From the IMG/VR virus record IMGVR_UViG_3300037634_004666, positions 1-60,955 of that record: a stretch of DNA of 60,955 nucleotides. One strand, written 5' to 3'. Shown in pieces: positions 4,505-27,800 of this stretch; the first letter of the stretch is position 1, and each line of letters begins with the position of its first letter. The notes beneath the pieces are model-generated. The model searched no databases. It was not told where the DNA came from and saw only the letters and a program-made list of their open reading frames with translations. This DNA is from a virus. Its lineage: Duplodnaviria > Caudoviricetes. A program made the translations under genes and the position numbers.

Positions 4505-5285
4505 AATCCCTCTTAATTGAGGGTTGGACTAATACATACTTCGGTATGGACCTGAAAATCGATGGTTTAATTAGTATCGCGGCTGCATATAGTCGTCAAA
4601 TAAACTCAGTAATGAGGATAAAGTTAACATTGGGTTAAGATTTAACAACCGATGTAGCGCTGTAGTAATGCAGTTAAGTATGCAATAGAGGTACCACTGA
4701 CGACCTAATGGTAAATGCTAAAGGTTGAGGTGATGAGCGTGGGATGCTTATTGAGGTTAATAGCCAATAGGAGAACTCTAAGGAATTATGCAGTGACTAT
4801 GGTGGTTTGTTGCGTATTCCAGTAACTTTAAGGATTGTCTTCTAGTAATAGAAGGGAGTGTTAAACTTACCGTATAAACTTTGTCACCAGCAAAGAATAT
4901 ATCAAGGCGTGAAGTATTTCGTATGAAAATGCGAAGCTTCAATCCAATGTGTCGTCTTGAATTTACCTGAATCTTATTTAGACGTTGAATACGTTTTACC
5001 TAAAGATAAGTAAAATAGCATGGACGCTTGAGAGCATAGGTGCCTCTTGTCGGCTGAAATAGGTCGAGTTACAAAGCTCACAAGGTTTTGTAATTGTAAT
5101 GAACGTATCGTAGGTCTGGGCACAGGTCTATAGTATTATTAATTGCAAAGACAACTTAAGCGTTACGAGTGATGAGTGTAACTCATTGGCATTGGTAGTT
5201 ACATCTTTGATAAAAGGGTGTGGATAATTCGGCTAACAAATAAGGCTGGAGAAAGACTACTATTAATAACTGTATTCTCAGGTTA
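4505..5285 (+). ncRNA. Large structured non-coding RNA (~780 nt), GOLLD-like
   Basis: No track ORF. Many hairpins with UUCG/GNRA tetraloops and G-U pairs on the + strand (4535, 4605, 4660, 4839, 4918, 5111). 3' end GAAAGACUAC...AAUAAC...UCUCAGG resembles GOLLD as I recall it; family not verified. Confidence 0.6.
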
Positions 5286-5552
5286 TTTTCAAATTTCCGT
5301 GTTGTTTATTAATGTGATATAAAACTATATGCTGCCCTTAATGTTCAATTGATCATTAGAGGATCCGAAAGAGCATACATTAATAAAATAATTATATGGT
5401 GGATGACGGTGGAAAGTAGTGGAAACAACGATTTTTATAAAACTCTAACAAGCTTGAGATGAGATAGTTTGTCGGCCTTTTTTAGATATTTGTATAGAAA
5501 GAGGGAGCAGTGTGTTACCTGCTTTAAATTTTTAAATAAAATAAGGAATTAT

Positions 5553-5903
5553 ATGGAGTTATTACAAAGTTTAGAACAAAAACAAAGTAAAATAAAGGTA
5601 TCTTCAGCTGTATTACTATCTAATATGGTAGATAATAATGAAGGTAGTATCAAATTATGGGCAATTCCTACTATTATAGAAAAAGTTATTATATGGAATT
5701 TACATGCTTATCATAGATACCGATTTAGTCCTGAACCTTTCAGAAGTACATCTTTAGTTATTACAGATAGAAATTTACAAACTATAATAGAGAAGTTTTC
5801 AAAGATTACTTTTCCGGAATGGGAGAAAAGATTAAAGCAAGCTGATTCGTTAGTATTGCAATGTGAGGAGTTTAAAGATAAAGAGCCTGAATCTGTAGGT
5901 TAA
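5553..5903 (+). CDS. Hypothetical protein
   Basis: ATG 5553 with AAGGA SD is preferred over TTG 5469. Confidence 0.7.
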   Translation: MELLQSLEQKQSKIKVSSAVLLSNMVDNNEGSIKLWAIPTIIEKVIIWNLHAYHRYRFSPEPFRSTSLVITDRNLQTIIEKFSKITFPEWEKRLKQADSLVLQCEEFKDKEPESVG

Positions 5904-5908
5904 ATTTA

Positions 5909-5961
5909 AGAGCAACATAAGATCGTGTAATTTTAGACTCCTGTTGTGCGATAGTTGCTCT
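5909..5961 (+). other. Long intergenic stem-loop (processing site or terminator)
   Basis: AGAGCAAC...ATCGTGTA / TGTGCGAT...GTTGCTCT. Confidence 0.5.
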
Positions 5962-5986
5962 GTTATTAATAATAAAAAGGAATAGT

Positions 5987-6121
5987 ATGAAAATAAGAAA
6001 TAGTGTAAAAGCTAGAGTTGCTGCTTTTAAACTTGTCAGAAAGTTTAAGAAATTTAAAGTACCTATCGTAAGAGTTCAAATTACTAAAAATGGTATGAGA
6101 GGAGTAAGTCATAGTGGATAA
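5987..6121 (+). CDS. Small basic protein (44 aa)
   Basis: AAAAGGA SD, then MKIRNSVKARVAAFKLVRKFKKFK...; overlaps the next start. Confidence 0.6.
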   Translation: MKIRNSVKARVAAFKLVRKFKKFKVPIVRVQITKNGMRGVSHSG

Positions 6122-6323
6122 ATTTTGGGAAATTGTAGAATATATAGATGTATATATATTAGGTAAAATTTTATTAATCCTAGGCCTCATAGGTGCCATA
6201 ATAACTATATATTGGATATTGCATTCTGGTTGGATTGAGGCAGGAATAATAGGCATAGGTAGTGCTATGCTTATCTTCCTTGGGTTCGAGCATAAACAAT
6301 TTCATAATAATAAAGATTATTAA
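6114..6323 (+). CDS. Small membrane protein (2 TM)
   Basis: GAGGAG upstream of GTG; two hydrophobic helices. Confidence 0.65.
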   Translation: MDKFWEIVEYIDVYILGKILLILGLIGAIITIYWILHSGWIEAGIIGIGSAMLIFLGFEHKQFHNNKDY

Positions 6324-6860
6324 GGTAATTAAGTAAGCATATTTCAATAGTAGCATTTATCCGCTAGAGCCTTTGTATTACGCTGAAAAAGGATTACCTT
6401 ATGAAGTCCTCTCGCTTGTAAAAGCGTATGCATCCTACCCAAGGGTCCTATGGTATAGTTGGGGGTGGCGAGAGGCAAGATGTACAATGAGAATGTTTCT
6501 TCCGATCTGCGCCACTTATTTACGAAATGATATGTTACTGTACTTAAGTTAATGTGACGGACATTAGAGACACTTTATATATAGAGAGATGTAGAGTCTG
6601 CAGGCATGCCGTTAAAGATAACATAAAGGAAACTGTTATTACGCTTCTCTCTATATTCATTGTATTAATTTAAATACTATTGCATGTATCAAGCTATGCT
6701 GTTCTAAGTCCGGAGAAGCTTGACTAAGTTGATTTCCAGGGCACTCTACTATTTAACTGCAGAAATAGAAAAGAAATATGAGTCACTGAGTTCAGTTGAT
6801 ATAAAAGCATGTATAGTATTTATAATATTTAAACTAAATAAAAAAAAGGAAACACATCAA

Positions 6861-8825
6861 ATGAATGAAATATTAAATATATTTAAGGATGGTGTAAGAC
6901 AAGAAATACCTGAAGATTTAGATAGATTTAAACCTATTTCTTTTACAGAAAGAGGAAGACTTATCTTTAAAGTAAATATAATAAAACGACTTTTAAATAT
7001 TATATTGGGCTGGGATACACAAAGAACTAATTATGATAGAGATCATCCTTCTGCACATGAAATAGTTGGATTAAAAATTACTGATGGTTTTAGATTTGCA
7101 CCAAAAGAAAATGATAGGTTGAGAGAAAGAATAGAATTAATGACTCAATTTAATTTATCAAGTATTTATTGGCATGGTTGGAATAGTAGACCTCAATATA
7201 ATGAAGATTTAAAATCTCAATCTAAAAATCTAAATACTTTATTAACAAAATACAAGACTATTAGAAGTAAAAATAATTATAATACTTGTCTTGATATTAC
7301 TATAAGTACGTTTGTAATGAATTGCATGCATGAATGTAGTGGAGATGCAGAGTTATGGGATAAACTTGCAGATTTAATAAATAATAATTCTAATCGAGAT
7401 TGGTGGAATCAAAGATCTGTTACATGTTTTCTAATAGGTAGAAATAGAGGTGGTTTATCAGATATTAGAGATTTTCCAACTTCTGAAAATAATACAAGTG
7501 ATAGAGAAAATCCTAGAAATTTTTCTATAATTACAAATCCAATGTCATTAGCTTGTGATTTTATAGTATTAATAAGATATTTGTTAAAACAAATTAAATT
7601 ATGTCCATTAACTAATGATGAATTTCAATTCCCTGCTTTAGAAGATTATATAGAGGGTGAATTTCAATCTTTTGAAGATTCTAAGGATAAAATTTCAAAT
7701 ATTAATATAACTGATGCACTTATCTTGAAAGAGCCAAATTCTTTAAGATCAATTACAAAGATTCATTTTAAAGAATTAGATGCATATTTATGGCACCCAA
7801 ATGGAAAAGAGCTAACTCCAGTAATTAGATCGTTTAAAGATATTCATAATAATCATTATGGTATGTATTTTTATGCTGTTAAAACTTTACGCTTTTGTAC
7901 TAATAGAGAAGATGGAGAGTTAAAAATTATTGATGTTAAAAATTATGCTCATAGTGATTTAAATAATCATTCAGTATTCTATTGTACATCTGCTTTAAAT
8001 GATCAAGTAGGTCGAGATTCTGAAAAATTATTCAATGAAGAAAGGGATTATATTCCAGCTATGAATACTTGCTTTAATTCTTATGGTAGTAATATTACAA
8101 GTGGAATGCAACAAAGAAGTTATTTACCATTATTTACTCATGTAAAATCGTGGTTAATTAATTATATTTGTACTAAAACTTCACCTTATAAACATCCTCG
8201 AGATGTATTCTATGGATTACCTATAAATATACCTAAATGGTATGAAAATTTACATGATGCTTCTTCAAGTGCATGTATGGCTAATTTATATCGTCATTCA
8301 ATAGAAATACAGCAGAGAGATCAGGAAATAAATACAAATGCTATAGAGCCAGGGCATGAAATAAGGCCTTCAATGCAACATAAATTAAATCATGTAAGTG
8401 ATGTTGATTTAACAGCATTATTAGATAATAAATGTTCAGATTGTCAATTAATCTCTACATGTTATTTAAATAAGTATGCACATGAAGCTTTACCTTCATA
8501 TTATGATGATAAAAAGGCTTGTGCATTACCTGGTATAGCTCCTGAAAAGTTTGATATGCCTGGAGTTTGTCGACCTACTGTGTCGGCTGTAGAAAGTATT
8601 CTAGCTGAAGGGAGAGTAACCGATGAAGGTATAGAACCTGTATTTGAAATTATAGAAGATGTACCTTTAGAGGTACCACTTGATCCTAATATAATAACTA
8701 CAGAAAATACAAGAGATTCAGAAAGAACTCCTCTTATTGAAGAAGTCGTAGATTACACAATAGAAGAAGCAGAAAGAAGAAGGGATATTATGCAAGAAAT
8801 GAGTAGTTGGGCTATAACAAGATGA
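6861..8825 (+). CDS. Large protein with a candidate prokaryotic E2-like (Ubl-conjugating) domain and a Cys-rich C-terminus
   Basis: ATG 6861 with AAAGGA SD. NTCFNSYGSNI...LFTHVKSWLINY...SPY resembles the post-catalytic-Cys helices of E2-like proteins; also CSDCQLISTC. First gene of the JAB-E1-Ubl operon. The CDS is secure; the E2 call is tentative. Confidence 0.5.
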   Translation: MNEILNIFKDGVRQEIPEDLDRFKPISFTERGRLIFKVNIIKRLLNIILGWDTQRTNYDRDHPSAHEIVGLKITDGFRFAPKENDRLRERIELMTQFNLSSIYWHGWNSRPQYNEDLKSQSKNLNTLLTKYKTIRSKNNYNTCLDITISTFVMNCMHECSGDAELWDKLADLINNNSNRDWWNQRSVTCFLIGRNRGGLSDIRDFPTSENNTSDRENPRNFSIITNPMSLACDFIVLIRYLLKQIKLCPLTNDEFQFPALEDYIEGEFQSFEDSKDKISNINITDALILKEPNSLRSITKIHFKELDAYLWHPNGKELTPVIRSFKDIHNNHYGMYFYAVKTLRFCTNREDGELKIIDVKNYAHSDLNNHSVFYCTSALNDQVGRDSEKLFNEERDYIPAMNTCFNSYGSNITSGMQQRSYLPLFTHVKSWLINYICTKTSPYKHPRDVFYGLPINIPKWYENLHDASSSACMANLYRHSIEIQQRDQEINTNAIEPGHEIRPSMQHKLNHVSDVDLTALLDNKCSDCQLISTCYLNKYAHEALPSYYDDKKACALPGIAPEKFDMPGVCRPTVSAVESILAEGRVTDEGIEPVFEIIEDVPLEVPLDPNIITTENTRDSERTPLIEEVVDYTIEEAERRRDIMQEMSSWAITR

Positions 8826-9001
8826 ATAGCTTAAAACAACTCCGAAAGGAACAAGCTGTTGAAAGACAGGCAGCTAGAGATAAAAGATCTATACTTCAAC
8901 AATTAGAGCTTATTAAATCTAGAAGAGGTAATTCTAAGAGAGAAGTAGCAAGGTTAACAGCTTTGCTACACTCTCAAAATAATAAAAACAGGAAGAAATA
9001 A
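8822..9001 (+). CDS. Small basic helical protein
   Basis: ATGA overlap upstream and TAATG overlap downstream; R/K-rich. Confidence 0.7.
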   Translation: MNSLKQLRKEQAVERQAARDKRSILQQLELIKSRRGNSKREVARLTALLHSQNNKNRKK

Positions 9002-9912
9002 TGGTTAAAATTGACATTAAAGACTGGAATAAACTTCAAGGATATGCAAAAATGGCGTATAATGGAGTAGAAGGGCATGATATTTCTAAATGTGAAATTA
9101 GTGGAATACTAATAGCATTTAAAGAAGACAATGATATAATATTAAAACATCCTTGCATTCTTGAACAAACAGTAAGTGGAGGTAACTGTATTTTAGATAA
9201 AGCTGCTTTAGCTCAATACTATACAGAATCTTGTATGAAATATGGTACTGATATTAGATTTGTTTGGTGGCATTCTCATCATATGATGAGTGCATTTTGG
9301 TCAAGTACTGATTTGACAGCTATTGAAGAATTTAATTTAGGTGATTATAGTATGAGTTTAGTTATAAACTTAAAAGAAGAGTATAAGTTTAGAATAAATT
9401 GGTGGAAACCAGCTGCAGCTCATATAGATACTGAATTAAAAATAATCAAGACTGAACAACCTATAACTACAGAAATGATAGCTGATTTTAAATCATTAGT
9501 TACCAAGATAGTAGTTCCTGAAACTAAAGCTCTAAGTAGGTTTAATAGTTGGGCTGGTAGATATAAACAACCTAATAATTATGGACCTGGATTAGTAGAT
9601 GCAACACTTATGGACACTGAAGATACAATTTATGATAAGTATTTAGATATAGCTGATGATTGTTTAGAAGAAATATATGGAGATCTTGCTAAAGAGTATG
9701 AAATGTTCTTAGGAGAATGGAAAAAGATTCAAAATAGTGCTATTAAAGATGGTATAGAAATTTTGGATATAAATGAGAAAGAATTTAATCTTTTAAAAGG
9801 AAGTAGATATGCTAATGCAACAGAATACGTTAAGCCGGCCTCTGGTAGCCAACAAGATCTTTGGCGCAGCGGGAATCAATACCCGGTATCAGGGGATTTG
9901 TGGAGAGTTTAA
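9001..9912 (+). CDS. JAB/MPN+ (JAMM) metallo-isopeptidase
   Basis: Catalytic Glu in CEISG plus WWHSHHMMSAFWSSTD (HxHx7Sx2D). Confidence 0.9.
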   Translation: MVKIDIKDWNKLQGYAKMAYNGVEGHDISKCEISGILIAFKEDNDIILKHPCILEQTVSGGNCILDKAALAQYYTESCMKYGTDIRFVWWHSHHMMSAFWSSTDLTAIEEFNLGDYSMSLVINLKEEYKFRINWWKPAAAHIDTELKIIKTEQPITTEMIADFKSLVTKIVVPETKALSRFNSWAGRYKQPNNYGPGLVDATLMDTEDTIYDKYLDIADDCLEEIYGDLAKEYEMFLGEWKKIQNSAIKDGIEILDINEKEFNLLKGSRYANATEYVKPASGSQQDLWRSGNQYPVSGDLWRV

Positions 9913-10555
9913 TCAATATCATTATCATATCTTTGGTTGCGGAGCTATTGGAAGCTTCGCAGCTATTGGTATAGCTATGATGGATGGTAAAGATTTTACC
10001 CTTTATGATATGGATACAATATGCATGGAAAATGTAGGTATAAGTGCATATACTTTAAGTGATTTAGATGATACAAAAACCTTTGCCTTAAAGCAAAAAT
10101 TAATAGATAATGATGCTAAGTCAATATGTATTAATGATGGATATGTAGATATAGATACTAAGTTAAACTTAAGTATAAAAAAAGAAAATATAGCTATATT
10201 ATGTTTTGATAGTATGCATAGCAGATTAGAACTCGCTGAAGTATGTTTTAAAGCTGGTATTAAAATAGTAATAGATGCCCGAATGGGTGGTGAACAAATG
10301 CAAATATATACTCATAATAATTTAAAGGATTATAAAGATTGTTGGTATTCTGATGCAGAAGGTTCTACAGAAACATGCACCACTAAAGGTACAAGTTATT
10401 GTTCTCTTGTAGTAGGAGGGATAATCACAAGTCAAATCAAGAAAGTGATAAATGGTGATCCATATTCAAGAGAAATAGTTTTTCACATTCCATCTATGGG
10501 GATGGCGTGTACAACCATGGTTAAACCCATAAATAATAAAGAAAGGGAAGCATAA
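9809..10555 (+). CDS. E1-like ThiF/MoeB-family adenylyltransferase
   Basis: IFGCGAIGS, YDMDTICMENVG, CFDS, IDARMGG, candidate catalytic Cys in ETCTTKG. Confidence 0.9.
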   Translation: MLMQQNTLSRPLVANKIFGAAGINTRYQGICGEFNQYHYHIFGCGAIGSFAAIGIAMMDGKDFTLYDMDTICMENVGISAYTLSDLDDTKTFALKQKLIDNDAKSICINDGYVDIDTKLNLSIKKENIAILCFDSMHSRLELAEVCFKAGIKIVIDARMGGEQMQIYTHNNLKDYKDCWYSDAEGSTETCTTKGTSYCSLVVGGIITSQIKKVINGDPYSREIVFHIPSMGMACTTMVKPINNKEREA

Positions 10556-10556
10556 A

Positions 10557-10763
10557 ATGGATATTCATTTAATGTTTAATACAGCTTCGTTTGTTTTAAC
10601 GAACACAGATGCCACTACTGTTGGTGGTTTAATTGAGGAATTAGATATTCCTTCCAGCTCTACAGTTCAAGTAAATATTGACGGCGTTGTAGTTGGTCAT
10701 GATACTCCATTAGTTGCAAATGCTATTGTAGCAGTAGTAGCTAAAGACAAAGTTGGTGGCTAA
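10557..10763 (+). CDS. Ubiquitin-like beta-grasp protein (ThiS/MoaD/Ubl) ending in GG
   Basis: 68 aa, TTVGGLIEELDI...VNIDG...TPL...IVAVV..KVGG-stop; directly after E1. Confidence 0.85.
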   Translation: MDIHLMFNTASFVLTNTDATTVGGLIEELDIPSSSTVQVNIDGVVVGHDTPLVANAIVAVVAKDKVGG

Positions 10764-10790: not shown

Positions 10791-10819
10791 AAAGGGGAGA
10801 GATTAGGCTCCCCTTTTTT
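10791..10819 (+). terminator. Intrinsic terminator closing the Ubl operon
   Basis: AAAGGGGAG-loop-CTCCCCTTTTTT. Confidence 0.8.
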
Positions 10820-10830
10820 CTTAAAAATGA

Positions 10831-11064
10831 TTGGAAAATATGTTAGAAGTAAAAAAAGATATACCAAGAACAATAGAGTATCCTATAATTGGAAAAGTTT
10901 ATGATGTAACTACCAATCAAGGTAATATTCATAAGCATATTCAATTCCAAGGATATAGTAATGGAGTGGCTAAGCCTAAATATATATTTAAAGAATTAAA
11001 CGGACAAAGAATCAGCATAAATCCTTCTTATGAAGTAGAAATGGCTGAGGTTTTAACGTTATAA
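10831..11064 (+). CDS. Small hypothetical protein
   Basis: ORF track; fills the gap before the replication genes. Confidence 0.65.
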   Translation: MENMLEVKKDIPRTIEYPIIGKVYDVTTNQGNIHKHIQFQGYSNGVAKPKYIFKELNGQRISINPSYEVEMAEVLTL

Positions 11065-18642: not shown

Positions 18643-18803
18643 AAACAGAAACTAAAAACAAAGCTATATTGGGAGAGTTAATAATAACTATTATGCAAAT
18701 ATATAAATCTAATATAGATAGTCTAACGCCTTATGAAATTATATCACTTATAAACAGTAAAGTTTATTATGCTAAAATCCGTATTGAGCGACATCGGATT
18801 TAA
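18639..18803 (+). CDS. Small hypothetical protein (54 aa), last gene of the + arm
   Basis: ATGA overlap; its stop overlaps the convergent stop at 18800. Confidence 0.5.
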   Translation: MKTETKNKAILGELIITIMQIYKSNIDSLTPYEIISLINSKVYYAKIRIERHRI

Positions 18804-21800
18804 GCTCCTTTGAATAACCGCAAGTTAGTCAGTGTAGCATAAGCCTGATTCCTTATATCTCGCTGACTAACATTTTTCTTTCTCTTTTCTTTTTTTCCTA
18901 TTTGTACATCAGGTAAACCTGCCACAGAGTTATAAAAGTCAGCACCTTTAGCGATAAGAGGTCTTTCCATTCCAAACCATTTTTTTATATATTTAGGATA
19001 ATATGTTCCAGTCATTAAGCGTTGAACTTGCTCCCAATCCCCTTTAAATACTGCTGGCGCTATTTGCATACCCCATCTAGCCCCTGCAATTGAAAATGTT
19101 CTAGCTACATTATAATTCCAATCAGGATCGCCTGGATCAAAGTTTAAATTTCTTAAATCTCTATATTCATCAGGGTTTAATTTTAAAAAATCAAATAATT
19201 GCGCATATGACATTAAATCACCTACACCTGGGCCTCCAAGTAAATGTGCCAATAAGCCTTTACCATAAGTCGCATTATAATGTTTGAGCATTTCTTCTTC
19301 ACTGGCATCAGGATCATTCATAAAATAATCAGCTAAAACTTTTACATCTTGTAATACAGGATCATCTATTAAGCCACTACTTGAGTTTCCAAGTAAACCA
19401 GGGATACCCCCAAAATCAAGCCCAAACCCTACAGCTGTAATTAGTGGAATTATTGTATTAACAAAACTAGCTCTTATTATTCGATCTATTGTAGGATTTA
19501 ATATTTTATTTCCAGAGACAGGATCTATAACAATATGATCACCTATCATTATATCGGTACCACCTTCTTTTATTAAATTATACATCATATCGAAATATGC
19601 AAATTTAAAATGTTTAAATTGGCCAAAGACCTTTCCACCTCTAGACTGTAATACTTTTGCCTTTGACCATCTATTATAATCATAATGAATTGTCTTTACC
19701 ATATTAGCAGCGATATTACCAGAAGCAGCCTCTATTTTATCATAAACCTGTCTATCTGAAATTTCATAAGGTTCTACAATCTTACCTTCAGCAGATTTAG
19801 ATTTAGCTATCTGACCTCTATGCCATTCCATTTTTTCTTTAGTTGCCTCACCTAAAAAAGCATTAGCAAAGGATGTTTTAAAAGTACTTTCTCTGTTTTT
19901 ATTCTCAGCCCAAGCCATCATTTTAGCTGGTCCCCAAATTTTACCGAGAGTCTTTTTTATCATAGCAGGGGTAGCATTAGGCATAGCATCAGCTAATTTT
20001 TCAGCAGAAGCAAAAGCCCCTAAACCTGAAGCTAAAGCTTGAGTATATGTAGGGTCATTAGATCTAATTAACTCCCCTTTTGCATCTATTTCCATTCCTT
20101 TAAATGTTAATATTGTATCTAAGGATCCAGCGGTAGCTGCACTTAAAGAAGCTCCAGCTTGATTCTCCCCTATTTTTAATCCAAATCTACGCATTTGACG
20201 AGTCATCATCATTGCATTATTAATATTTTCACCTTTAGCGCTAAGTCTTGATGTTGTAGCATAAAACTCTTTAGCTCTCCTTAAACCTCTTTTTCCAAAC
20301 CACATCCAATTCTGATATTCCCATAGCCTATTCTTTATACCAGATTTTATTCCCCACCCTAATTTAGCAATATATTCCCAAGCATTGACTACTTGGATAG
20401 CTCTATCGAGCTCTGTTATCTCACCTCTATTCTGATTTAAAACAGATTCTTTTAGTTCTTGTAGTACATTTAATTTATATTGAGCATATTCATTTAAAAC
20501 TCCTCCATTTCTAATCATTTTATGCATCCCAGCTATACTGTCTAAATAAGCCTCAGACACATGAGCTCTGAAATTAGCATTAGATACATCATTTACGTAT
20601 TTAGGTAGATAAAAAGAAGGATCCATTGTAACCCAATGTTGATGGTCCCCTTTAGGAGTTAATCTATCAGTGATAGTATAAGGTTGTACTGATTTTTCCA
20701 GCTGATTTATAAATTCCGTTTTAGTTAGTGGATTTTGTTCAGCTTTTACCCAGTTAGAAGAATTGCTTAATGTAAATTCTTGAATCTTTCTTAAGGAAGA
20801 AGCTAACCCTATTACATATTCAGGAGCGAATTTTTTAACCCCTTTTGCTATTACATATTCCCCAGTTTCATAATCATAAACTTTGTATGGCATATTTTTT
20901 CTTGACTTATGATCGTAAACCATTAAAGTACCGTCTTTATCTTTAAATATAGAGTTAGAATCTATTTTAGTTTGCACTAATAAAGTATCTATAGCTCCTG
21001 TAATTTTATCTAGTATAGGTTTAAAACTAGTAACATCAGCTGTGCTGGCATATTTTAGTATAATCCTTTTAGTTGTTTGAGCTGTATTCAGCAAATCTTT
21101 AGCCGTACTAACTCTTAGTATGTTATATTCGTTAACAATACCTCTCTCTAATTCAGTTTCAGGAGTTTTGTTACCTATTAATAGATCATTAAAATCTTTT
21201 AGTACTTTACTGGACTTAGTTTCATTTCCATTTCCAGTAGATTGGCCAGTGTAATCCATAAGCTCGGCTAAAGCAATAGCTCTCTGGGTTTTATTAGTAG
21301 CCTTAGCAAGATTAGCCTCTAATTTTTTAAATTCAGAAAATTCAGCTTTACTAAAACCCCTATCTCCAAACATTTGAAACATATCATCTAATAGTTTATT
21401 TACATGTAGAGATCCTTGGCCTGTTCTTCTCTCACTAAAACTTTGAGCATTCTCAAGGTCTTTATAAAACTTAGCCCCTTCTTTCCATTTATCAAATATA
21501 CGCTTAGGAAGTTTGAAATAATTAGAAAACTTAGAGCCAGTAACTCCAAAATTACTATCGATATGATTGCTTACGTATTTTTTAAATCTTTTCATATCAT
21601 ATTTATTAACATCCCAATCTTTAGATAATTCTTTCCCTCTGTTTGCGTTTTTCCACATCCAGTTAACAAGGCCAACAAGTTCTTTTCTATTAGATGGATC
21701 CTTCATAGGACCTATAAAATCTATAACCTTTTTATTTTTTTCCAATTCAGCTGTAATTTCTACTATACCTCTTTTGAAATCATCAGATGTTGAATTTCTA

Positions 21801-21823
21801 CCTGTACATATATTTGCAAACAT
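18800..21823 (-). CDS. Large internal virion/ejected protein (1007 aa)
   Basis: Helical; last of four large genes after the nozzle gene; AAGGAG SD. Confidence 0.6.
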   Translation of the reverse strand: MFANICTGRNSTSDDFKRGIVEITAELEKNKKVIDFIGPMKDPSNRKELVGLVNWMWKNANRGKELSKDWDVNKYDMKRFKKYVSNHIDSNFGVTGSKFSNYFKLPKRIFDKWKEGAKFYKDLENAQSFSERRTGQGSLHVNKLLDDMFQMFGDRGFSKAEFSEFKKLEANLAKATNKTQRAIALAELMDYTGQSTGNGNETKSSKVLKDFNDLLIGNKTPETELERGIVNEYNILRVSTAKDLLNTAQTTKRIILKYASTADVTSFKPILDKITGAIDTLLVQTKIDSNSIFKDKDGTLMVYDHKSRKNMPYKVYDYETGEYVIAKGVKKFAPEYVIGLASSLRKIQEFTLSNSSNWVKAEQNPLTKTEFINQLEKSVQPYTITDRLTPKGDHQHWVTMDPSFYLPKYVNDVSNANFRAHVSEAYLDSIAGMHKMIRNGGVLNEYAQYKLNVLQELKESVLNQNRGEITELDRAIQVVNAWEYIAKLGWGIKSGIKNRLWEYQNWMWFGKRGLRRAKEFYATTSRLSAKGENINNAMMMTRQMRRFGLKIGENQAGASLSAATAGSLDTILTFKGMEIDAKGELIRSNDPTYTQALASGLGAFASAEKLADAMPNATPAMIKKTLGKIWGPAKMMAWAENKNRESTFKTSFANAFLGEATKEKMEWHRGQIAKSKSAEGKIVEPYEISDRQVYDKIEAASGNIAANMVKTIHYDYNRWSKAKVLQSRGGKVFGQFKHFKFAYFDMMYNLIKEGGTDIMIGDHIVIDPVSGNKILNPTIDRIIRASFVNTIIPLITAVGFGLDFGGIPGLLGNSSSGLIDDPVLQDVKVLADYFMNDPDASEEEMLKHYNATYGKGLLAHLLGGPGVGDLMSYAQLFDFLKLNPDEYRDLRNLNFDPGDPDWNYNVARTFSIAGARWGMQIAPAVFKGDWEQVQRLMTGTYYPKYIKKWFGMERPLIAKGADFYNSVAGLPDVQIGKKEKRKKNVSQRDIRNQAYATLTNLRLFKGA

Positions 21824-21831
21824 ATTTCTCC

Positions 21832-24800
21832 TTAATAATGACAGTTAAATAGCTGTTCTTTTATTGATTCTGCAGCTGTTTTATTTTTTAAGTTCTCAGA
21901 GCCAAGTCTACCAGCTTCACTAAAAGTTACTCCCGTAGATTCAAATATTCCATTAACTCCCACTGATTTCTTTTCAGAGCCTCTCCATAACCTATTATGG
22001 ATTATATGAGCCTGATTTGATTCAGATAATGGTTTATTATTCATCACAGTTGTAAGTCGGTAAACCTCAATAGGATTTAAAATATTTTCACCAGTTAAAT
22101 ATCCAGTCATAATCTCTCTAGCATGTTCATTTAACCCATCGGCTGTTAAAAATTCAGGCTTATTTCTTCCAGGAGCAATTCTATTCTTCCCTAAAATAGG
22201 ACTTCTAGCCTCTTCAAATGATTCAAAATTAACAAAATTACCAGCCTTAAATTCCTTACGAGCTCTTTCATTAAATTCTATAGCCCAGCCTTTTTTACTT
22301 TCTGTAAGAACATGTTTACTCCACTCTTCACCTAAAGCTCTGCTTATTTCTGGAAACGTACCATTCCTAGCTTTATCTAAGAATCCTATAGCTGTTATTT
22401 CATTGCCGTTCTTTTTAAAAGCTACACTTTTAATCATATCTGTATTATTAATACTCCATATACCCCATGTATTTTTTTCAACATTAGGAGCCAGCATGTA
22501 TCTTAAAAACTGCAGAGCTGAATCTGAGCCTCTATTTTTAAGTAGGCCTGTCACTTCGTTTAAAACATCATAAGTCATAGCCTCATACATTGAAGCCTTA
22601 GAGTCTTTAGATTGAAATTCACTACTTGTTGTAAACTTTTTTCGTGTGTCTTTTGAGGCTTGTATAAAATTTATATATCTTCCATAAATATATTGCGCTT
22701 CTTGAGCAGATAAGGATTTTAATCTACCAGCAAATGCACGAGATTGACCTCTAAATATTTTCTGTTCACCACTATTCATTGCTACATATTCAGTAGGGTT
22801 CTCTATAACTATATCCCCTTCCTTGACTTCATATTTTTTCCCTTCCTTATATTTAATAGTGTTAGATGGTTTCTTTGTAGTCTTGTCAAATTTAATTACA
22901 TGAACTGGGCCATTATAGGCTGTCCTTGTACCAGCAAATCTAACTATATCCTGACTAGTTGGTTTTTCTTGATCATATAACATTTTTGTATGAAAATAAT
23001 TACTAGCTTCAATATATAACTTATTTAGTCTAGCTTGTAAAGCTTCTAGTTTTTTATATTGAGAAGTCTCTTTTTTCTTAAAATTCTCAAATTCCACCAT
23101 TCTATCGCCAACCTTCTCTAGGTCATATTTAATTCTAGATACAGTCATATGTAGATTCTCACTACTTTTTATTTCATTTATTGCCTGAGTATATGCATAA
23201 CCATCTCCTGATTTTGTAGCCTTATCATAAACATAAGCTAATACACCTGAAGAAGCAGGGGTACTATTATAACCTATTAAACTTTTCTCTGCAGCCTCCA
23301 TAGATTTTAAACCCTGTATTAGAGGATGATTAGATTCTCCATACTCAGTGCCGCTATATACCTTATTACCAATCCAATTTAATATATTTTCAGATAATCC
23401 AGCATATGCATTTTCTACCCATTCCTTTTTTTCAAAATCCCAACGTCCACCACTATTCTTTATCTTGTATTTAATTTTATTATAAGCCTTAACTAAGTCA
23501 TGTCTTGTCATAGGAATAGAAGACCCATCACTTAATGTTTCTGTTCTATTAGCTAAATTAAACAGACTATTTAAAGGTTTTATTATATTATTAGTAATAT
23601 GCATTCTGGCATCTCTCGCAGCCTGATCACTACTCCATCCGACAACCTTATCTTTCCTGAGCAGCTGTAAAATAGGTAGAACATTCCCATCATTTGATCC
23701 AAACCAAACTAAACCTTCAAGATCGATACCATTTAAGTTTTGCTGCGTTTTATATATATCAATAGTAGATTTTATCATACGTTTCATATACTGAGTTGTG
23801 CTAATTAAATCAGACCCCGCAGCTAAACGTATATTATATAAGTCATTCCCGCTTTTAAATGACATTAAATTCGTTGTGTTGTAACCCACCCCTACTTCTG
23901 CTGATCTACCACCCTTTTCAGCGGACATTTCCATCTGAATATCCATATCCCTTGCTTCTCTAGGCCAATACTTACCTTTACTACTCTTTCCTGTCATTTG
24001 ATATAGCAAACTCATTGTGTTCATATTTCTAATCAGCGGGGCTCTTTTTCTCTCTATAACAGCTAAGGCAGCAGCGTAATCTTTAATCCCGTCGCTAGAA
24101 AATACAAACTCTTTCAGCATTTCTTCGGCAAAACTTTCAGAAGCTGGAGACTCAAAACCTTGAAGGTCATATATATCTTCCATAGCTCTTGAGCTTAAGT
24201 TAGTAAAATTTGCAGATTTATCTAAGTCAAAATCTGCATCTTGAGGTTCTAATACATCCATAAAATTCATTTCAGACACAGGCCCTTTCGTTTCGCCCAT
24301 AATCTTTTCAATCTTAGTAATAACTCTATCATTTACACCTGCCATAGGAGTTCTAACATTTACTTCAGAGAAATAAACACCTTGGTAATGATTCCCATTT
24401 TCACCGAGCAATGTATGGTCATATTCCCGCTCTCTAGTAAAATCTTCTCCTTTAACGCCTTTTAAAAATTCTAAACTTCCTCTTTTTGTCAGTAATACAT
24501 CATTTGATCCTTTCGGTGAAGAGGCACCTGCAAGTCTATTATTCATTATTAGACGCATTGCCCCAGGAGTGTTTAAAGCAGGAATAGATTCTCCAAATGC
24601 TAATTCTATAATAGCGTCATTAAAAGATCCAATGTTTCTTTTAGAAAGATTCTTCTGTATAGTTCTAAAATCTTCCAATATAATTTTTTTAGCCTTATCT
24701 ATATTTCCTTGCAAAGGCATTCCAGTCTCTTTATACATTCGAGGGTCGTTAATACCCTTTATTGTACCATTTGTTAAAACTAAGAGCTCTATGCCTCTTT

Positions 24801-27800
24801 TTAAATTAGTTTTATCAGACAAAGCTTTTCCTACTCGGAAGATCATATGATGGCCATTATCGCCTCCCCCTAATTGCCCGTCTATAGAAGTTGTACCAGC
24901 CTGAAAATTCATACCAGAACCTCCAAATCTAAGTTTACTTGCTCTCTCTATTTGCGGAATGGATAAATCTGACCCTGGAACCATAACTGGATACCTTCCA
25001 AAACCTGTTTGTGCTGTTGTGAAATTTCTATTTCCTAAATATTCTGATACTACTATTTTATCAAGTTGAGCTAACATATTAGAGAAAAGAGGTATGCCTC
25101 CTGATGTAACAGCCCAATCTAATCCTATTAATTCAGTCATAGAATTTCCATCTTGAGCGCCTATATTTCTTAAATGATCAGCTAATTTTATAGAGTATAA
25201 TGGATTATTTTTTAAATTATTTATATGACTATTCATAGTAGAGACGTTACCCTGAGTCCCCATTTGAGTAGAGATACTATTAACAGCTCCATCAGATAAC
25301 CAGTTATACATACCTGTAGTAACAGTAGCATTATGCTCTGAAGCTGTAGACTTTATAAATATGTTATTTCTATCAAGTTCTACAATTGGTATTGATTTAA
25401 TATCTGCATCACTTAATTTTGTTATATGTTCTATTAGACTATGATCCCAGGCCTCATTAGCATTATTTTTAGCCAAATCAACCATGTTCTCTGATACATC
25501 CCATGAAGGCCTTTTATACTCTTCTCCAAAACCTGTTTTATTTTGATTTAATTTACTAGAGCTTTCAAATGATATTGCATCTACACCTAATCTTTCCATA
25601 ACCTTATCAAACACAGGATTATAGGTATATGCAGTCTTAGCTATATATACAGATACTTCTCCAGTTTGTGAGTTTATCTTTGTCTGAAAAGCTATAGGCT
25701 TAACAGCATTATTAAATCCTATTATATTGCCCGCTTTATTAGTAATAAACATATCCTCGCTAGCACCTTGACCTACTAAAGTTGAAATCATTTCTTTTAA
25801 GCTTATAAATTTAGCTCCATTAGTAACGGAAGCCTTTACACTTTCCAGCTTTTCTGTCATCTGGTCAGCAGCTTCGTTTATTCTTGATTCATTAACACTT
25901 CCATCATTATTACGATACCCATCTCTCTCAGCTAATAACATCTCTCGATACAAAGCTTTTGCTCTTGTATGTGAGTCGAAGAATATTTCTCCATTACCAC
26001 TTTCATCGTATATATCTAGAATGCGTTGAGTTGGTCTATCTTTCCTATGCTGTAAAGCGATACCTAAAGCTTTACTACTAACCTCAGGTAAGTTATCCTT
26101 TTGAGCGTCAAAAAAGGCCTGAGTGAAGTCATATAATTTATCACTTAGTGGCATTCCTGTTCTTGGAGCATCTAGCTTTAAGTATTTTAGCAACTTTAAT
26201 GTGGCAGGGGTATCGCCAGCCCCTCGATCCATTATCAGTTCTCTAGTCTTATGAGCTCCAGATCTTAAAACTCTAGTAAGTAATACTAACTCTTGTACAT
26301 GGTTAACTTCAGAGTTTTCATGAGTAGATTTCAAACCATTTAAGTAATCATTTACCATATCAATAGCTTCAGCTTTATTGATAGTTCTTGCCCCACTTCC
26401 ATCTTTAGCAGGCATACTTGCAGATATAACAGCAGTAAGATCAGCTCTTAAAGATCCAGGCTCATTACTTGAACGTTCCCATGCGCCTATTATTTTATCA
26501 AAGGCTGAACTATGTACCATAATGCCAGTCTTCTCATCTAATTGAACATGTGAAAATACTGACCTTGTAGATTGATCACTTAGAATAAGGGCTTTATATT
26601 TGTCCATTAATGATTGTTCAGTAGGACTTAATAGCTTATGAGTAGTTAATTCAACATCAATTCCCTGACCTGACTTAGTTATTATATCATTTATCATCTC
26701 AAGAGTGAAAAAAGATCTAGCTTTTCCATCAACTACGCCTGTACCAGAAAGAAGAGAAATAGCATGAGGTTCATTTTCTAAGCCAAAATCAGTAATCATT
26801 GAATTTATACTCTTATCCCATCGAGATATTGAGCTTTCTTTTATATGGAATGTTCCATCTCTAAATTCCATAGTTGGTATTTTTTTAGAGTTTAGACCTC
26901 TAGATAATAAAGCAAATGTATCTCTTACAAATAATTTATAGTCCCCAGTTGCAGGATTACTTTCAATGAGAACCCTTTGTGATTCCATCATTGGAGAAAC
27001 AACTGAGTTCATAAAACTCTCCAATGTAAAACCTTCCACTTTTCCTGACTCTGATTGAACCAGCTGGTCTAACATATCATTGACTTTTATATTCCCTACC
27101 GCTTTTTTTAATTTACCTAAAGCTTCATTAGTCAAACCCTTAAAAGCGTCAGGCATAGAATCTTTAATAAGCTCCAAAGATTGACCTTTTAAAATACTAA
27201 CAAAAGCATCATTAAGCCCCCATCTAGATTTATATTTAGCGTCAGATATTGAAACGGTATTAGCATGAGGTCTAGCTGTTCTATCCATAGAGAAGGCAGT
27301 TTGATTTGATATATCTTCTATAAATGAGTTTAACTCATCCTCTGAGCCTAAAAAGATATGCTTAGAATAATCTTCTTTAACCTTACTCATAATATCATTA
27401 ATTTTCTCTCTTATCTTTTCAATACTTGCAGATGATTTTATAGAGAGATTTTCTCTTATTTCATTTCTTACCTCAGCTATTTTTTCATGTTGCCCAGCTA
27501 AAATTCTCAAACCAGCAGCATCATTTGTTTCTTGATAATATTTAAATCTATTTACAAAAGTAGAATAATCATCAAATAAGGAGTTAAAAGACTCTCTTAA
27601 TTTACTATCAGCTGCACTTAACTCGCCTTTTGTTATATCTTGATATATATCAAGAGAAGTTCTTGCATTATCTAACCCAAGTTTACCTTGAGATATATCT
27701 CCAACTACAGCATTAAAATTTTCAGCTATATTAGCGTCTAACATATTGGTAATTTCTATAATCTCTTGTTTGACTTCATTTAATGAAAATCTATCGCTAT

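Follow-up and report, generated by a model that had tools for sequence, protein, structure and literature searches.

A candidate E2-like protein encoded beside Ubl, E1, and JAB genes in a phage genome

RESULTS

A conserved cassette at the head of the replication module

The window analyzed here, the whole 60,955-nt stretch of virus record IMGVR_UViG_3300037634_004666 (Duplodnaviria; Caudoviricetes), is a complete ~61-kb phage genome (CheckV completeness, 100%). Pfam and PHROGs scans of its open reading frames (ORFs) showed that portal, terminase, major capsid protein, and primase-helicase are all encoded by the phage. The replication/recombination module opens with an ORF of 654 aa, which is followed on the same strand by genes for a JAMM/JAB peptidase, a ThiF-type E1, and a ThiS-like Ubl and then by a terminator-like hairpin, which likely marks the end of the transcription unit (Table 1). 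The JAB and E1 ORFs share ~100 nt, with E1 in the +1 frame.

Table 1. Features of the cassette and of the 654-aa protein, in positions of the window
Feature	Coordinates	Strand	Evidence and remarks
654-aa protein, candidate E2-like (E2/E3-hybrid) enzyme	6861..8825	+	ORF, translation, homologues, alignments
Predicted UBC/RWD-like alpha/beta core, residues ~256-451	7626..8213	+	AlphaFold2 models, VIA-align matches
Core elements			Helix 258-275; strands 281-324; extra hairpin ~335-365; helices 382-392, 406-417, 421-433
H312-P313 of conserved HPxG turn past third strand	7794..7799	+	11/11 sequences covering it
Cys404 codon, candidate thioester site	8070..8072	+	Motif N-x-C-[FLMT]-[SGND]-x-[YH]; 12/12 sequences
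Invariant Cys cluster C472...C525-x2-C528-x5-C534	8274..8462	+	With H465 (11/12) and D466 (12/12)
64-aa basic ORF	8807..9001	+	Only in this phage and closest relative L003
JAB/JAMM peptidase, 303 aa	9001..9912	+	Intact E...HxHx7Sx2D motif
ThiF/MoeB-type E1 adenylyltransferase, 248 aa, single domain	9809..10555	+	Pfam ThiF, 5.4e-16
ThiS-like Ubl, 68 aa	10557..10763	+	C terminus ...KVGG-stop; Pfam ThiS, 6.3e-5, over cut-off
Terminator-like hairpin	10791..10816	+	9 pairs, then T-run; 28 nt past Ubl stop; consensus scan only
77-aa conserved small protein	10831..11064	+	Always next after Ubl gene

The order of 654-aa homologue, JAB, and E1 was kept in all 12 sources examined (the window plus relatives L002 to L012), which collapse to 8 distinct viral or metagenomic lineages. 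In 10 of the 12, the Ubl gene and then the 77-aa ORF follow E1; the two remaining contigs (L002 and L008) stop inside E1. In three relatives (L004 to L006), the JAB gene starts 4 nt past the stop of the 654-aa homologue. It is thus strongly indicated that the JAB, E1, Ubl, and 654-aa genes form one conserved unit in all relatives found, while membership of the 77-aa ORF in the Ubl system is uncertain.

The JAB ORF matched Pfam Prok-JAB weakly (E value of 0.0083, under the curated cut-off), and its JAMM motif is intact in 5/5 aligned homologues. The ThiF domain of the E1 spans residues 35 to 233; its best NCBIfam matches were ThiF and MoeB adenylyltransferases (1e-12 to 4e-16, under cut-offs), and the PADLOC E1-E2 models matched its Rossmann region. 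Cys190, in the crossover-loop region, is invariant in 6/6 E1 sequences, a Flavobacterium phage ThiF among them. Of seven Ubl sequences, one ends in GG and six carry a further Lys or Arg (GGK or GGR). Together, these data strongly indicate that the trio downstream consists of a GG-ended ThiS-like Ubl, a loop-Cys ThiF-type E1, and a JAMM protein whose metal residues are intact. The C-terminal half of the JAB protein and the 77-aa ORF were each considered as the site of an E2 and rejected, as neither carries an invariant Cys. No other phage ORF matched the Pfam E2, RWD, or UEV models (16 and 47 ORFs scanned).

The nature of the E1 and Ubl raises the possibility of a sulfur-carrier pathway. In this scheme, the E1 would thiocarboxylate the Ubl, which would then supply sulfur to a thio-modified product, be it a nucleic acid, a cofactor, or a metabolite; Cys404 would let the 654-aa protein accept or transfer the sulfur, and the role of the JAB would be carrier maturation, as known from CysO/Mec-type operons. 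The locus does hold the ThiF/MoeB-type adenylyltransferase and GG-ended beta-grasp carrier of such a pathway: the E1 matches ThiF and MoeB enzymes best and the Ubl matches Pfam ThiS. Sulfur-assimilation operons of JAB, ThiS/MoaD-like, and E1 genes are described in PMC1779556. Against this reading, Pfam scans of 16 and 47 phage ORFs found no rhodanese, cysteine desulfurase, PP-loop ATPase, radical-SAM, ThiG, or MoaE-like protein and no sulfur-using TtuA-like synthase, although these absences weigh little because host enzymes could stand in. Also against it, the predicted fold of the large protein (see below) is UBC-like, unlike known sulfurtransferases. We consider a sulfur-carrier role decidedly unlikely.

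The 654-aa protein defines a family with five invariant cysteines

In the frame of the large protein, the ATG at 6861, with an AAGGA motif upstream, gives 654 aa, and the closest homologue, P0003, likewise starts MNEIL. The initial annotation had called this protein an orphan. In keeping with that term, it matched nothing in Pfam, PHROGs, PADLOC, or NCBIfam, but it is not a singleton: an exhaustive HMMER search returned 11 proteins at an E value of ≤0.001, the window's own product and 10 others, and further homologues sit on viral and metagenomic contigs. Word-index protein searches with the 654-aa protein or its alignment (A1) found only itself. There was no tblastn match in 50,697 phage records and no homologue in one genome per species across 185,579 bacterial and archaeal species. 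A sequence-profile search of the PDB with A1 at an E value of ≤10 gave just weak histidine-kinase helices, and residues 250 to 550 had no usable match in the ESM Atlas.

We aligned 12 sequences, with 20 to 34% identity to the window protein. Five of its 17 cysteines (C404, C472, C525, C528, and C534) are invariant in 12/12 sequences and the other 12 are not; conservation of Cys in this alignment is above chance. C404, the sole invariant Cys beyond the four-Cys cluster, is preceded by N402 in 10/12 sequences and followed by a hydrophobic residue in 11/12 (Thr in one). The strings quoted by the initial annotation are all present in the translation of 6720 to 8825, and the two cysteine features to which it had drawn attention both proved invariant: the Cys at 8070, which is C404 of NTCFNSY (codon 8070-8072), and the cluster containing CSDCQLISTC (residues 525 to 534, 8433 to 8462). 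The cluster is probably a zinc site, and we infer that it may have an E3-like or adaptor role. A protease-like triad of C404, H465, and D466 was considered and rejected: H465 is Thr in one member, and no papain-like chain appeared among the structural matches listed by VIA-align.

The annotation had also proposed an E2-like His in YAHSD (residues 362 to 366), noting its long spacing of ~40 residues from the Cys. The spacing is right, with H364 (codon 7950) 40 residues before C404, but the residue is not conserved, being His in just 1/11 sequences. H370 is His in 3/12. An HPN motif, which in E2s lies ~8 to 10 residues before the Cys, is absent near C404, and the sole conserved His-Pro, H312-P313, lies 92 residues upstream of it.

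Structure predictions place Cys404 in a UBC/RWD-like core

Two AlphaFold2 models, one of the full-length protein and one of residues 221 to 550, were built from an 11-row alignment. Both runs gave the same topology for residues 258 to 433, a helix, a beta-meander, and helices, with block-mean pLDDT over this region of ~65 to 90 (full-length run) and 36 to 82 (domain run); the whole-model means were 64.5 and 67.1. In the models, C404 follows the sheet, whose last residue is ~365, and precedes helix 421-433. The fold begins ~105 residues further upstream than the domain start (~330) given by the initial annotation.

The models were compared with 48,161 chains using VIA-align, a structural search independent of Foldseek. 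Among the 50 matches listed per model, 18 (full model) and 24 (domain model) were E2s by title, at Z scores of 4.7 to 6.1, and most of these span almost the whole E2 chain (e.g., 126 to 127 of 151 residues of 1zdn_A aligned). The listed matches included bacterial BilB (8tyz_C; Z of 6.1, rmsd of 3.2 Å, 103 residues aligned), Cap2 (7to3_A; Z of 5.6, 125 residues aligned), and UBE2O chains (Z of 5.0 to 5.4). The top domain-model matches were noncatalytic RWD domains (Knl1 4nf9_A, Z of 6.5; RWD, Z of 6.2 to 6.5), with Listerin and FANCL also listed. All domain Z scores are ≤6.5, under the tool's stated background of 7 to 8 for models without a Foldseek match. The alignment ranges permit more than one helix register for C404 against the E2 catalytic Cys; C404 lies 46 to 47 residues before the end of the aligned range, a distance that would resemble that in several E2s, although other registers fit.

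Other searches returned no E2 assignment. Foldseek against the PDB gave no match at an E value of ≤0.001 for either model. None of 11 family members matched a Pfam E2 family (UQ_con or Prok-E2_A to Prok-E2_E) at an E value of ≤1, and the 654-aa family matched no Pfam RWD or UEV model. For the window protein, no family in Pfam, NCBIfam, or PADLOC, the last of which includes Cap2 E1-E2 and BilD models, reached an E value of ≤0.01; the other Bil models are presumably in PADLOC as well. In hhalign, residues 250 to 470 scored a Prob of ≤0.3% against alignments that we built from 10 Prok-E2_D ORFs and from the first 200 residues of 4 Prok-E2_B ORFs, a comparison that is uninformative because the positive control, E2_D against E2_B, reached just 0.5%. 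A complex prediction of E1, Ubl, and residues 221 to 550, run without controls, gave ipSAE values of 0.00 and 0.02 (mark, 0.32) and is evidence neither way. The E2-like domain of the initial annotation is thus partly supported: both models, and matches drawn mostly from the UBC superfamily, favor a UBC-like fold, while the empty Foldseek search of the PDB and the Z scores under background do not. Of the two outcomes that would have spoken against such a domain, a lack of any UBC-like fold and an unconserved Cys, neither was obtained.

One alternative explanation for the structural matches would be that they are an artifact of low-depth models and that the protein is merely a conserved neighbor of JAB, E1, and Ubl with an unrelated function, such as that of a structural or replication-module factor carrying a zinc site. 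The background-level Z scores, the Foldseek result, and the shallow alignment fit such an explanation, as does the match of residues 25 to 252 to the thumb helices of family A DNA polymerases (Z of 6.3 to 7.8, 79 to 92 residues aligned), a sign of how readily generic helical matches are obtained. Because palm and fingers are unmatched, we regard that match as a generic helical hairpin, and we rejected an identity as a divergent DNA polymerase, of which the thumb helices alone match. Several observations argue against an unrelated function. Synteny holds in 8/8 distinct lineages at merely 20 to 34% identity to the window protein, JAB begins 4 nt past the stop in L004 to L006, and the terminator after the Ubl gene seems to bound the unit. 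Moreover, the match list is homogeneous (24/50 rows are E2s) and two independent model runs concur. We consider this explanation very unlikely.

A second explanation accepts the fold and not the catalysis: a UBC/RWD-like scaffold in the cassette, serving as an adaptor, a target, or a Ubl-binding platform, with the E1 alone conjugating and Cys404 structural or metal binding. E2-independent conjugation occurs in archaeal SAMP/UbaA-type systems. Consistent with a scaffold, RWD-type nonenzymatic domains (Knl1 4nf9_A at Z of 6.5, Listerin, FANCL) top the domain-model matches, there is neither an HPN-like motif nor an E2 profile match, and the E1 is of the minimal ThiF type, which can work without any E2; synteny favors membership of such a protein in the cassette. 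On the other hand, a lone Cys invariant in 12/12 sequences within a conserved local motif is unusual for a purely structural residue located apart from the four-Cys cluster. A noncatalytic scaffold seems to us unlikely.

DISCUSSION

Our preferred interpretation, to which we assign a probability of roughly 0.45, is that the 654-aa protein serves a phage-encoded Ubl system as its conjugating enzyme, being a divergent E2-like protein and possibly an E2/E3 hybrid. In such a system, the JAB peptidase would remove the one Lys or Arg that lies past GG in the Ubl of most relatives, and it would probably also undo conjugates. The E1 would adenylate the C terminus of the Ubl, which would then be handed on to Cys404 in the UBC-like core. 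Choice of the target could fall to the ~250-residue helical N-terminal region and the Cys4-type cluster, together with the disordered acidic tail and a conserved helix at the C terminus; the 654-aa protein would then be an E2/E3 hybrid without a separate E3, as has likewise been proposed for bacterial Bil E2s. More tentatively, the locus could represent the first phage-encoded self-contained Ubl cascade, in which a Ubl and a JAB protease would work with a minimal ThiF-type E1 and a single-chain E2/E3 hybrid of 650 aa, the latter a new sequence family built on a UBC-like core.

The bacterial defense locus Bil (BilABCD; operon type 6d of Iyer et al., 2006) has the same four parts, Ubl, E2-like protein, JAB, and E1, with the E2 of the phage cassette a candidate. 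PMC10557695, PMC11601596, and PMC1779556 describe a Bil E2-like protein with a conserved Cys and without the classical His, and a JAB that preprocesses the Ubl, exposing its C-terminal Gly, in a system described there without an E3. The classical E2 His is commonly missing in bacterial E2-like proteins, as PMC1779556 reports. According to PMC10557695, BilB, an experimentally shown bacterial E2, also has an insertion between strand beta4 and the catalytic Cys and superimposes on eukaryotic E2s with an rmsd of 3.4 Å over just 93 to 96 residues. The systems differ in several respects: the present cassette is phage encoded, its E1 is a 248-aa lone adenylation domain with loop Cys190 whereas the Bil E1 is an IAD-AAD-CYS enzyme, and the candidate E2 core is one part of a 654-aa chain that also has additional regions on its N- and C-terminal sides and a four-Cys cluster. 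Save for generic ThiF-region matches, the Bil and phage proteins have no model in common in PADLOC, Pfam, or NCBIfam.

Bub (6E/DUF6527) operons contain a diverged E1, E2, Ubl, and JAB set, the E2 of which was long held to be inactive. Their JAB-E1 fusion (BubCD) recalls the JAB/E1 ORF overlap in the phage. Bub proceeds through Ser/Tyr oxyester intermediates with no catalytic cysteines, whereas C190 of the phage E1 and C404 are invariant, and no DUF6527 protein was found in the phage ORF scans. Type II CBASS Cap2/Cap3 likewise combines E2 and E1 activities with a JAB peptidase, as the phage cassette is proposed to do. Cap2 is a fusion of E2 and E1, and the C terminus of the CD-NTase plays the part of the "Ubl"; the phage instead has a free-standing ThiS-like Ubl, and its cassette includes neither a CD-NTase nor an effector. 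Eukaryotic E2/E3 hybrids of the UBE2O type are also big single chains in which a UBC core is flanked by substrate-binding regions. The likeness to the 654-aa protein is one of architecture only, with no detectable sequence relationship; the phage protein lacks an HPN motif, and its partner E1 is of the ThiF type.

Pairs of Ubl and JAB are already known in phages, as described in PMC1779556, in the form of the lambdoid/T1 tail-assembly protein TAPI with JAB-containing TAPK. These lie in a tail-assembly cluster with no E1 or E2-like partner, whereas the present cassette includes an E1 and lies in the replication module. The only cultured-phage relatives of the E1 are those of the Flavobacterium phage FpV4 group (Fipvunavirus; 25.7% identity, E value of 1e-7, 29 records), whose cassette (420 aa, JAB, ThiF, 362 aa) has the same order of unknown protein, JAB-like protein, and ThiF. 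No Ubl gene was identified in that cassette, and neither HMM nor hhalign comparisons related its 420-aa and 362-aa proteins to the 654-aa family. BFVD entry A0A1B0WLX5 (420 aa), which has the same length as the 420-aa FpV ORF and may be that protein, matched our domain model at an E value of 1.5e-3. In the full-text literature, we found no phage-encoded cassette of E1, JAB, Ubl, and E2-like protein; the supplementary tables of Bil/Bub preprints could list some.

Prokaryotic Ubl conjugation has so far been demonstrated in bacterial antiphage systems, namely, type II CBASS, Bil, and Bub. If the locus does represent a self-contained cascade, it would attach covalent tags to proteins of the host or the phage early in infection, which could, for example, disarm host immunity or control replication and recombination. 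The cassette would add a new E2-like family so divergent that sequence profiles miss its core, and the pairing of such a family with the simplest known E1 type would bear on the evolutionary path from sulfur-carrier systems to E1-E2 relays. A complete phage-borne cassette would show that bacterial viruses use protein tagging too, as a virus-side mirror of bacterial Bil, Bub, and CBASS.

A conserved family around the 654-aa protein

We placed the start of the 654-aa protein at the ATG at position 6861 because its nearest homolog also begins with MNEIL; a longer version starting at a TTG at 6720 is unlikely. An earlier description of the protein as an orphan (the initial annotation) holds for curated libraries, since no match was found in Pfam, PHROGs, PADLOC, or NCBIfam, but not overall: HMMER run exhaustively over 1.84 billion representatives (E ≤ 0.001) returned 11 proteins, the window's own and 10 others, at E values from 9e-82 to 6e-4. 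Homologs are also present on viral and metagenomic contigs. No match was found among 50,697 phage records and no homolog among 185,579 prokaryote species (one genome each scanned), and a word-index protein search returned only the protein itself.

Conservation was assessed in an alignment of 12 sequences that share 20 to 34% identity with the window protein. All 12 have M1, Y374, C404, W431, Y435, T440, P442, G452, P458, W460, Y461, D466, C472, C525, C528, and C534; of the 17 cysteines of the window protein, only the five in this list are conserved. The strings quoted in the initial annotation all occur in the translation. The cysteine that it proposed at 8070 is encoded by the codon of the invariant C404, which lies in the motif N(10/12)-x-C-[F/L/M/T]-[S/G/N/D]-x-[Y(6)/H(6)], and the cluster that it noted in CSDCQLISTC (residues 525 to 534) is borne out by the invariance of all three cysteines. 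Its histidine did not stand: H364, in YAHSD (residues 362 to 366), is histidine in 1 of 11 sequences. H370 is histidine in 3 of 12, and the sole conserved His-Pro pair is H312-P313 (HPxG, 11/11), 92 residues ahead of C404. The acidic tail of several homologs carries an extra C-x-H...C-x2-C motif, which the window protein lacks.

Predicted structure of the central region

AlphaFold2 models were built from an 11-row alignment for the whole protein (mean pLDDT 64.5; block means of about 65 to 90 across residues ~225 to 480) and for residues 221 to 550 (domain model; mean pLDDT 67.1). Both contain a helix (258 to 275), four strands (281 to 291, 294 to 303, 307 to 311, and 321 to 324), and, after the strands, three helices (382 to 392, ~406 to 417, and 421 to 433); C404 is predicted to lie in the loop immediately ahead of the second of these. 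An extra hairpin follows the four strands, with strand 335 to 345 present in both models and strand 354 to 365 in the full model only.

Comparison with solved structures gave partial support to the UBC-like fold first suggested for this region. Foldseek searches of the PDB with both models returned nothing at E ≤ 0.001, while VIA-align, a Foldseek-independent structural search of 48,161 chains, gave an E2-rich list for residues ~256 to 451, with Z scores below 8. With the full model, 18 of the 50 matches listed were E2 enzymes by title, including UbcH10 (5a31_Q; Z 6.1, 123 residues aligned), UBE2J2 (Z 5.8), and UBE2S (Z 5.7, 126/151 aligned). With the domain model, 24 of the 50 listed were E2s; matches included a bacterial Bil E2 (8tyz_C; Z 6.1, rmsd 3.2 Å, 103/134) and Cap2 (7to3_A; Z 5.6, 125 aligned). 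The rest of the top full-model matches were thumb helices of family A DNA polymerases (residues 25 to 252; Z 6.3 to 7.8), which we regard as a generic helical hairpin. Since a Z score under about 8 can reflect a common arrangement, these numbers are not compelling alone; we read the fold as E2-like because the list is homogeneous, the E2 chains are covered nearly in full, and the two model runs agree. A spurious fold match in an unrelated neighboring gene, to be weighed with the empty Foldseek searches on one side and with this agreement and the gene order described below on the other, appears very unlikely.

The top domain-model match among those listed was the Knl1 RWD domain (Z 6.5), and about 13 further matches were to chains that we assign to the same superfamily (RWD, UEV, or FANCL type). 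Set beside these matches and the invariance of C404, a noncatalytic UBC/RWD-like scaffold in an E2-independent system seems to us a rather unlikely alternative to an E2-like enzyme. The aligned range extends 46 to 47 residues past C404, presumably near the corresponding length in several E2s, going by the catalytic-cysteine positions of those enzymes and with other helix registers possible. The domain model also matched eight unnamed viral proteins in BFVD at E ≤ 0.001 (best, 8e-10), and the fold family thus extends more widely among uncultured viruses. At the sequence level, Pfam E2 families matched none of the 11 family members at E ≤ 1. Alignment with hhalign to Prok-E2_D and Prok-E2_B alignments from Bacteroidota genomes gave probabilities of ≤0.3%, a test that was powerless because the E2_D versus E2_B control failed too.

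A conserved cassette with JAB, E1, and Ubl genes

An HMM for each cassette gene was run on all loci. The 654-aa gene, the JAB peptidase gene, and the E1 gene occur in this order in all 12 sources (the window and related contigs L002 to L012), which amount to 8 distinct lineages when identical scores and sizes are merged. The Ubl gene and then a conserved 72- to 100-aa ORF follow in 10 of the 12, the exceptions being two contigs that end inside E1. The window version of this ORF, a 77-aa protein, may be either another component or a target. One of seven Ubl sequences has GG at its end and the other six have GGK or GGR, so that most Ubls would be an obvious maturation substrate for the JAB peptidase. 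E1 Cys190, in the crossover-loop region, is invariant in 6/6 sequences, the ThiF of Flavobacterium phage Fpv3 included.

The overlap between the JAB and E1 ORFs measures 83 to 107 nt, and in 5/5 lineages E1 is read in the +1 frame with respect to JAB. Of the two frames, that of JAB is conserved through most of the overlap, yet the invariant E1 residues R26 and Y27 begin inside the overlap. The arrangement may reflect either a long overlap or programmed frameshifting that yields a JAB-E1 fusion, as in BubCD.

The 64-aa ORF product is probably a coiled coil and, compared by eye with that of the closest related phage (L003), is far more conserved than its 654-aa neighbor (about 34%). Contigs L004 to L006 lack this ORF, and their JAB ORF starts 4 nt past the preceding stop.

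Features of the cassette and its surroundings in the window and related sources
Feature	Source	Coordinates	Strand	Remarks
654-aa protein	Window	6861-8825	+	ATG start
64-aa basic ORF	Window	8807-9001	+	Between 654-aa and JAB genes
64-aa ORF	L003	9890-10078		
303-aa JAB protein	Window	9001-9912	+	Complete JAMM motif E...HSH-x7-S-x2-D; Pfam Prok-JAB only E 0.0083
JAB/E1 overlap	Window	9809-9912		
JAB/E1 overlap	L003	10889-10995		
JAB/E1 overlap	L004	10753-10859		
JAB/E1 overlap	L005	10723-10805		
JAB/E1 overlap	L006	10705-10811		
248-aa ThiF-family adenylyltransferase (E1)	Window	9809-10555	+	Pfam 5.4e-16
68-aa ThiS-like protein (Ubl)	Window	10557-10763	+	Ends ...KVGG-stop; Pfam 6.3e-5
Terminator-like hairpin	Window	10791-10816		After Ubl stop; consensus scan only
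77-aa protein	Window	10831-11064	+	Motif NQGNIH...GYSNGVAKPKYIFK...NPSYEVEM; no family match
1007-aa ORF	Window	18800-21823	-	Adjoins 3078-aa ORF; no Pfam or PHROGs match
Giant 3078-aa ORF	Window	21832-31068	-	No Pfam or PHROGs match
GOLLD RNA (Rfam RF02032)	Window	4902-5284	+	153.1 bits; gathering score 150
GOLLD RNA	L003	5933-6324	+	158.9 bits; relative position as in window
Pistol ribozyme	L006	3862-3922		Upstream of cassette; 57.8 bits, gathering score 34.5
Twister-P1-like match	L004	4756-4807		Upstream of cassette; 54.5 bits, under gathering score 67.2
tRNA	L003	6731-6805		Upstream of cassette
tRNA	L006	4791-4864		Upstream of cassette
Fpv3 cassette (KU599879.1)	L001	4473-8634		420-aa unknown, 423-aa JAB-like (HSH...S..D), 228-aa ThiF, 362-aa unknown

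The phage genome

The 60,955-base window is a linear, complete virus record (CheckV completeness, 100%) with a G+C content of about 29 to 37%. Its products include a P22-like portal, an SU10-type major capsid protein, and large and small terminase subunits, as well as a primase-helicase, a Sak4-like ATPase, a RuvC-like resolvase, and a Cas4-like nuclease; the large ORFs of the structural region are mostly unannotatable. Its GOLLD RNA, just over the gathering score, lies ~1.6 kb upstream of the 654-aa gene, and the remainder of this large RNA may lie within 4900 to 6860, where there is no convincing ORF. ARAGORN found no tRNA in the window.

Relation to known systems

In three Bacteroidota genomes (G001 to G003; L018 to L020 with L025, L027, and L028), a ThiF-like gene found with the phage E1 shares a contig with a Prok-E2_D gene (E about 1e-36) ~11 to 13 kb away, possibly as the PRTRC-type cassette of conjugative elements.

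As described in two reports (PMC10557695; PMC11601596), a Bil operon comprises genes for a Ubl, an E2 with a conserved cysteine, a JAB peptidase that exposes the C-terminal glycine of the Ubl, and an E1, with no E3 among the components given there. The same reports describe an extended loop from β4 to the catalytic cysteine of BilB, for which target recognition is proposed, and an rmsd no better than 3.4 Å to eukaryotic E2s over 93 to 96 residues. The classical histidine is missing from several bacterial E2-like families, according to the survey of Iyer et al. (2006, PMC1779556). Because of the BilB loop and these families, neither the absent histidine nor the ~60-residue insert before C404 counts against an E2.

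The present cassette differs from Bil in being phage-borne and in its E1, which is of the minimal single-domain ThiF type, with sulfur-carrier adenylyltransferases as top NCBIfam matches. Its E2 candidate, unlike that of Bil, sits inside a 654-aa protein with an invariant four-Cys cluster, a disordered acidic tail, and a conserved C-terminal helix. Alongside the E1 matches we weighed a sulfur-carrier pathway in which C404 would handle sulfur, and we judge it unlikely; Pfam scans of the window ORFs recognized E2, RWD, rhodanese, or thio-synthase nowhere else in the phage.

Among cultured phages, the E1 has its nearest relatives in the FpV4 group of Flavobacterium phages (29 records, 25.7% identity). 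These phages have an analogous arrangement of an unknown 420-aa protein, a JAB-like protein, and ThiF, but no similarity between their 420-aa or 362-aa protein and the 654-aa family was detected at the sequence level. The Fpv3-type ThiF is annotated as a thiamine biosynthesis protein and nothing more.

We found no description of a phage-encoded cassette of E1, JAB, Ubl, and E2-like genes in the literature listings searched. As the likeliest of the readings weighed, with a probability of about 45%, we tentatively propose a divergent E2-like enzyme of conjugation for the 654-aa protein, one that probably unites E2 activity with target selection, in a phage-encoded Ubl-E1-JAB cassette. The FpV4-group cassette may represent an analogous Ubl-type system in a growable phage.
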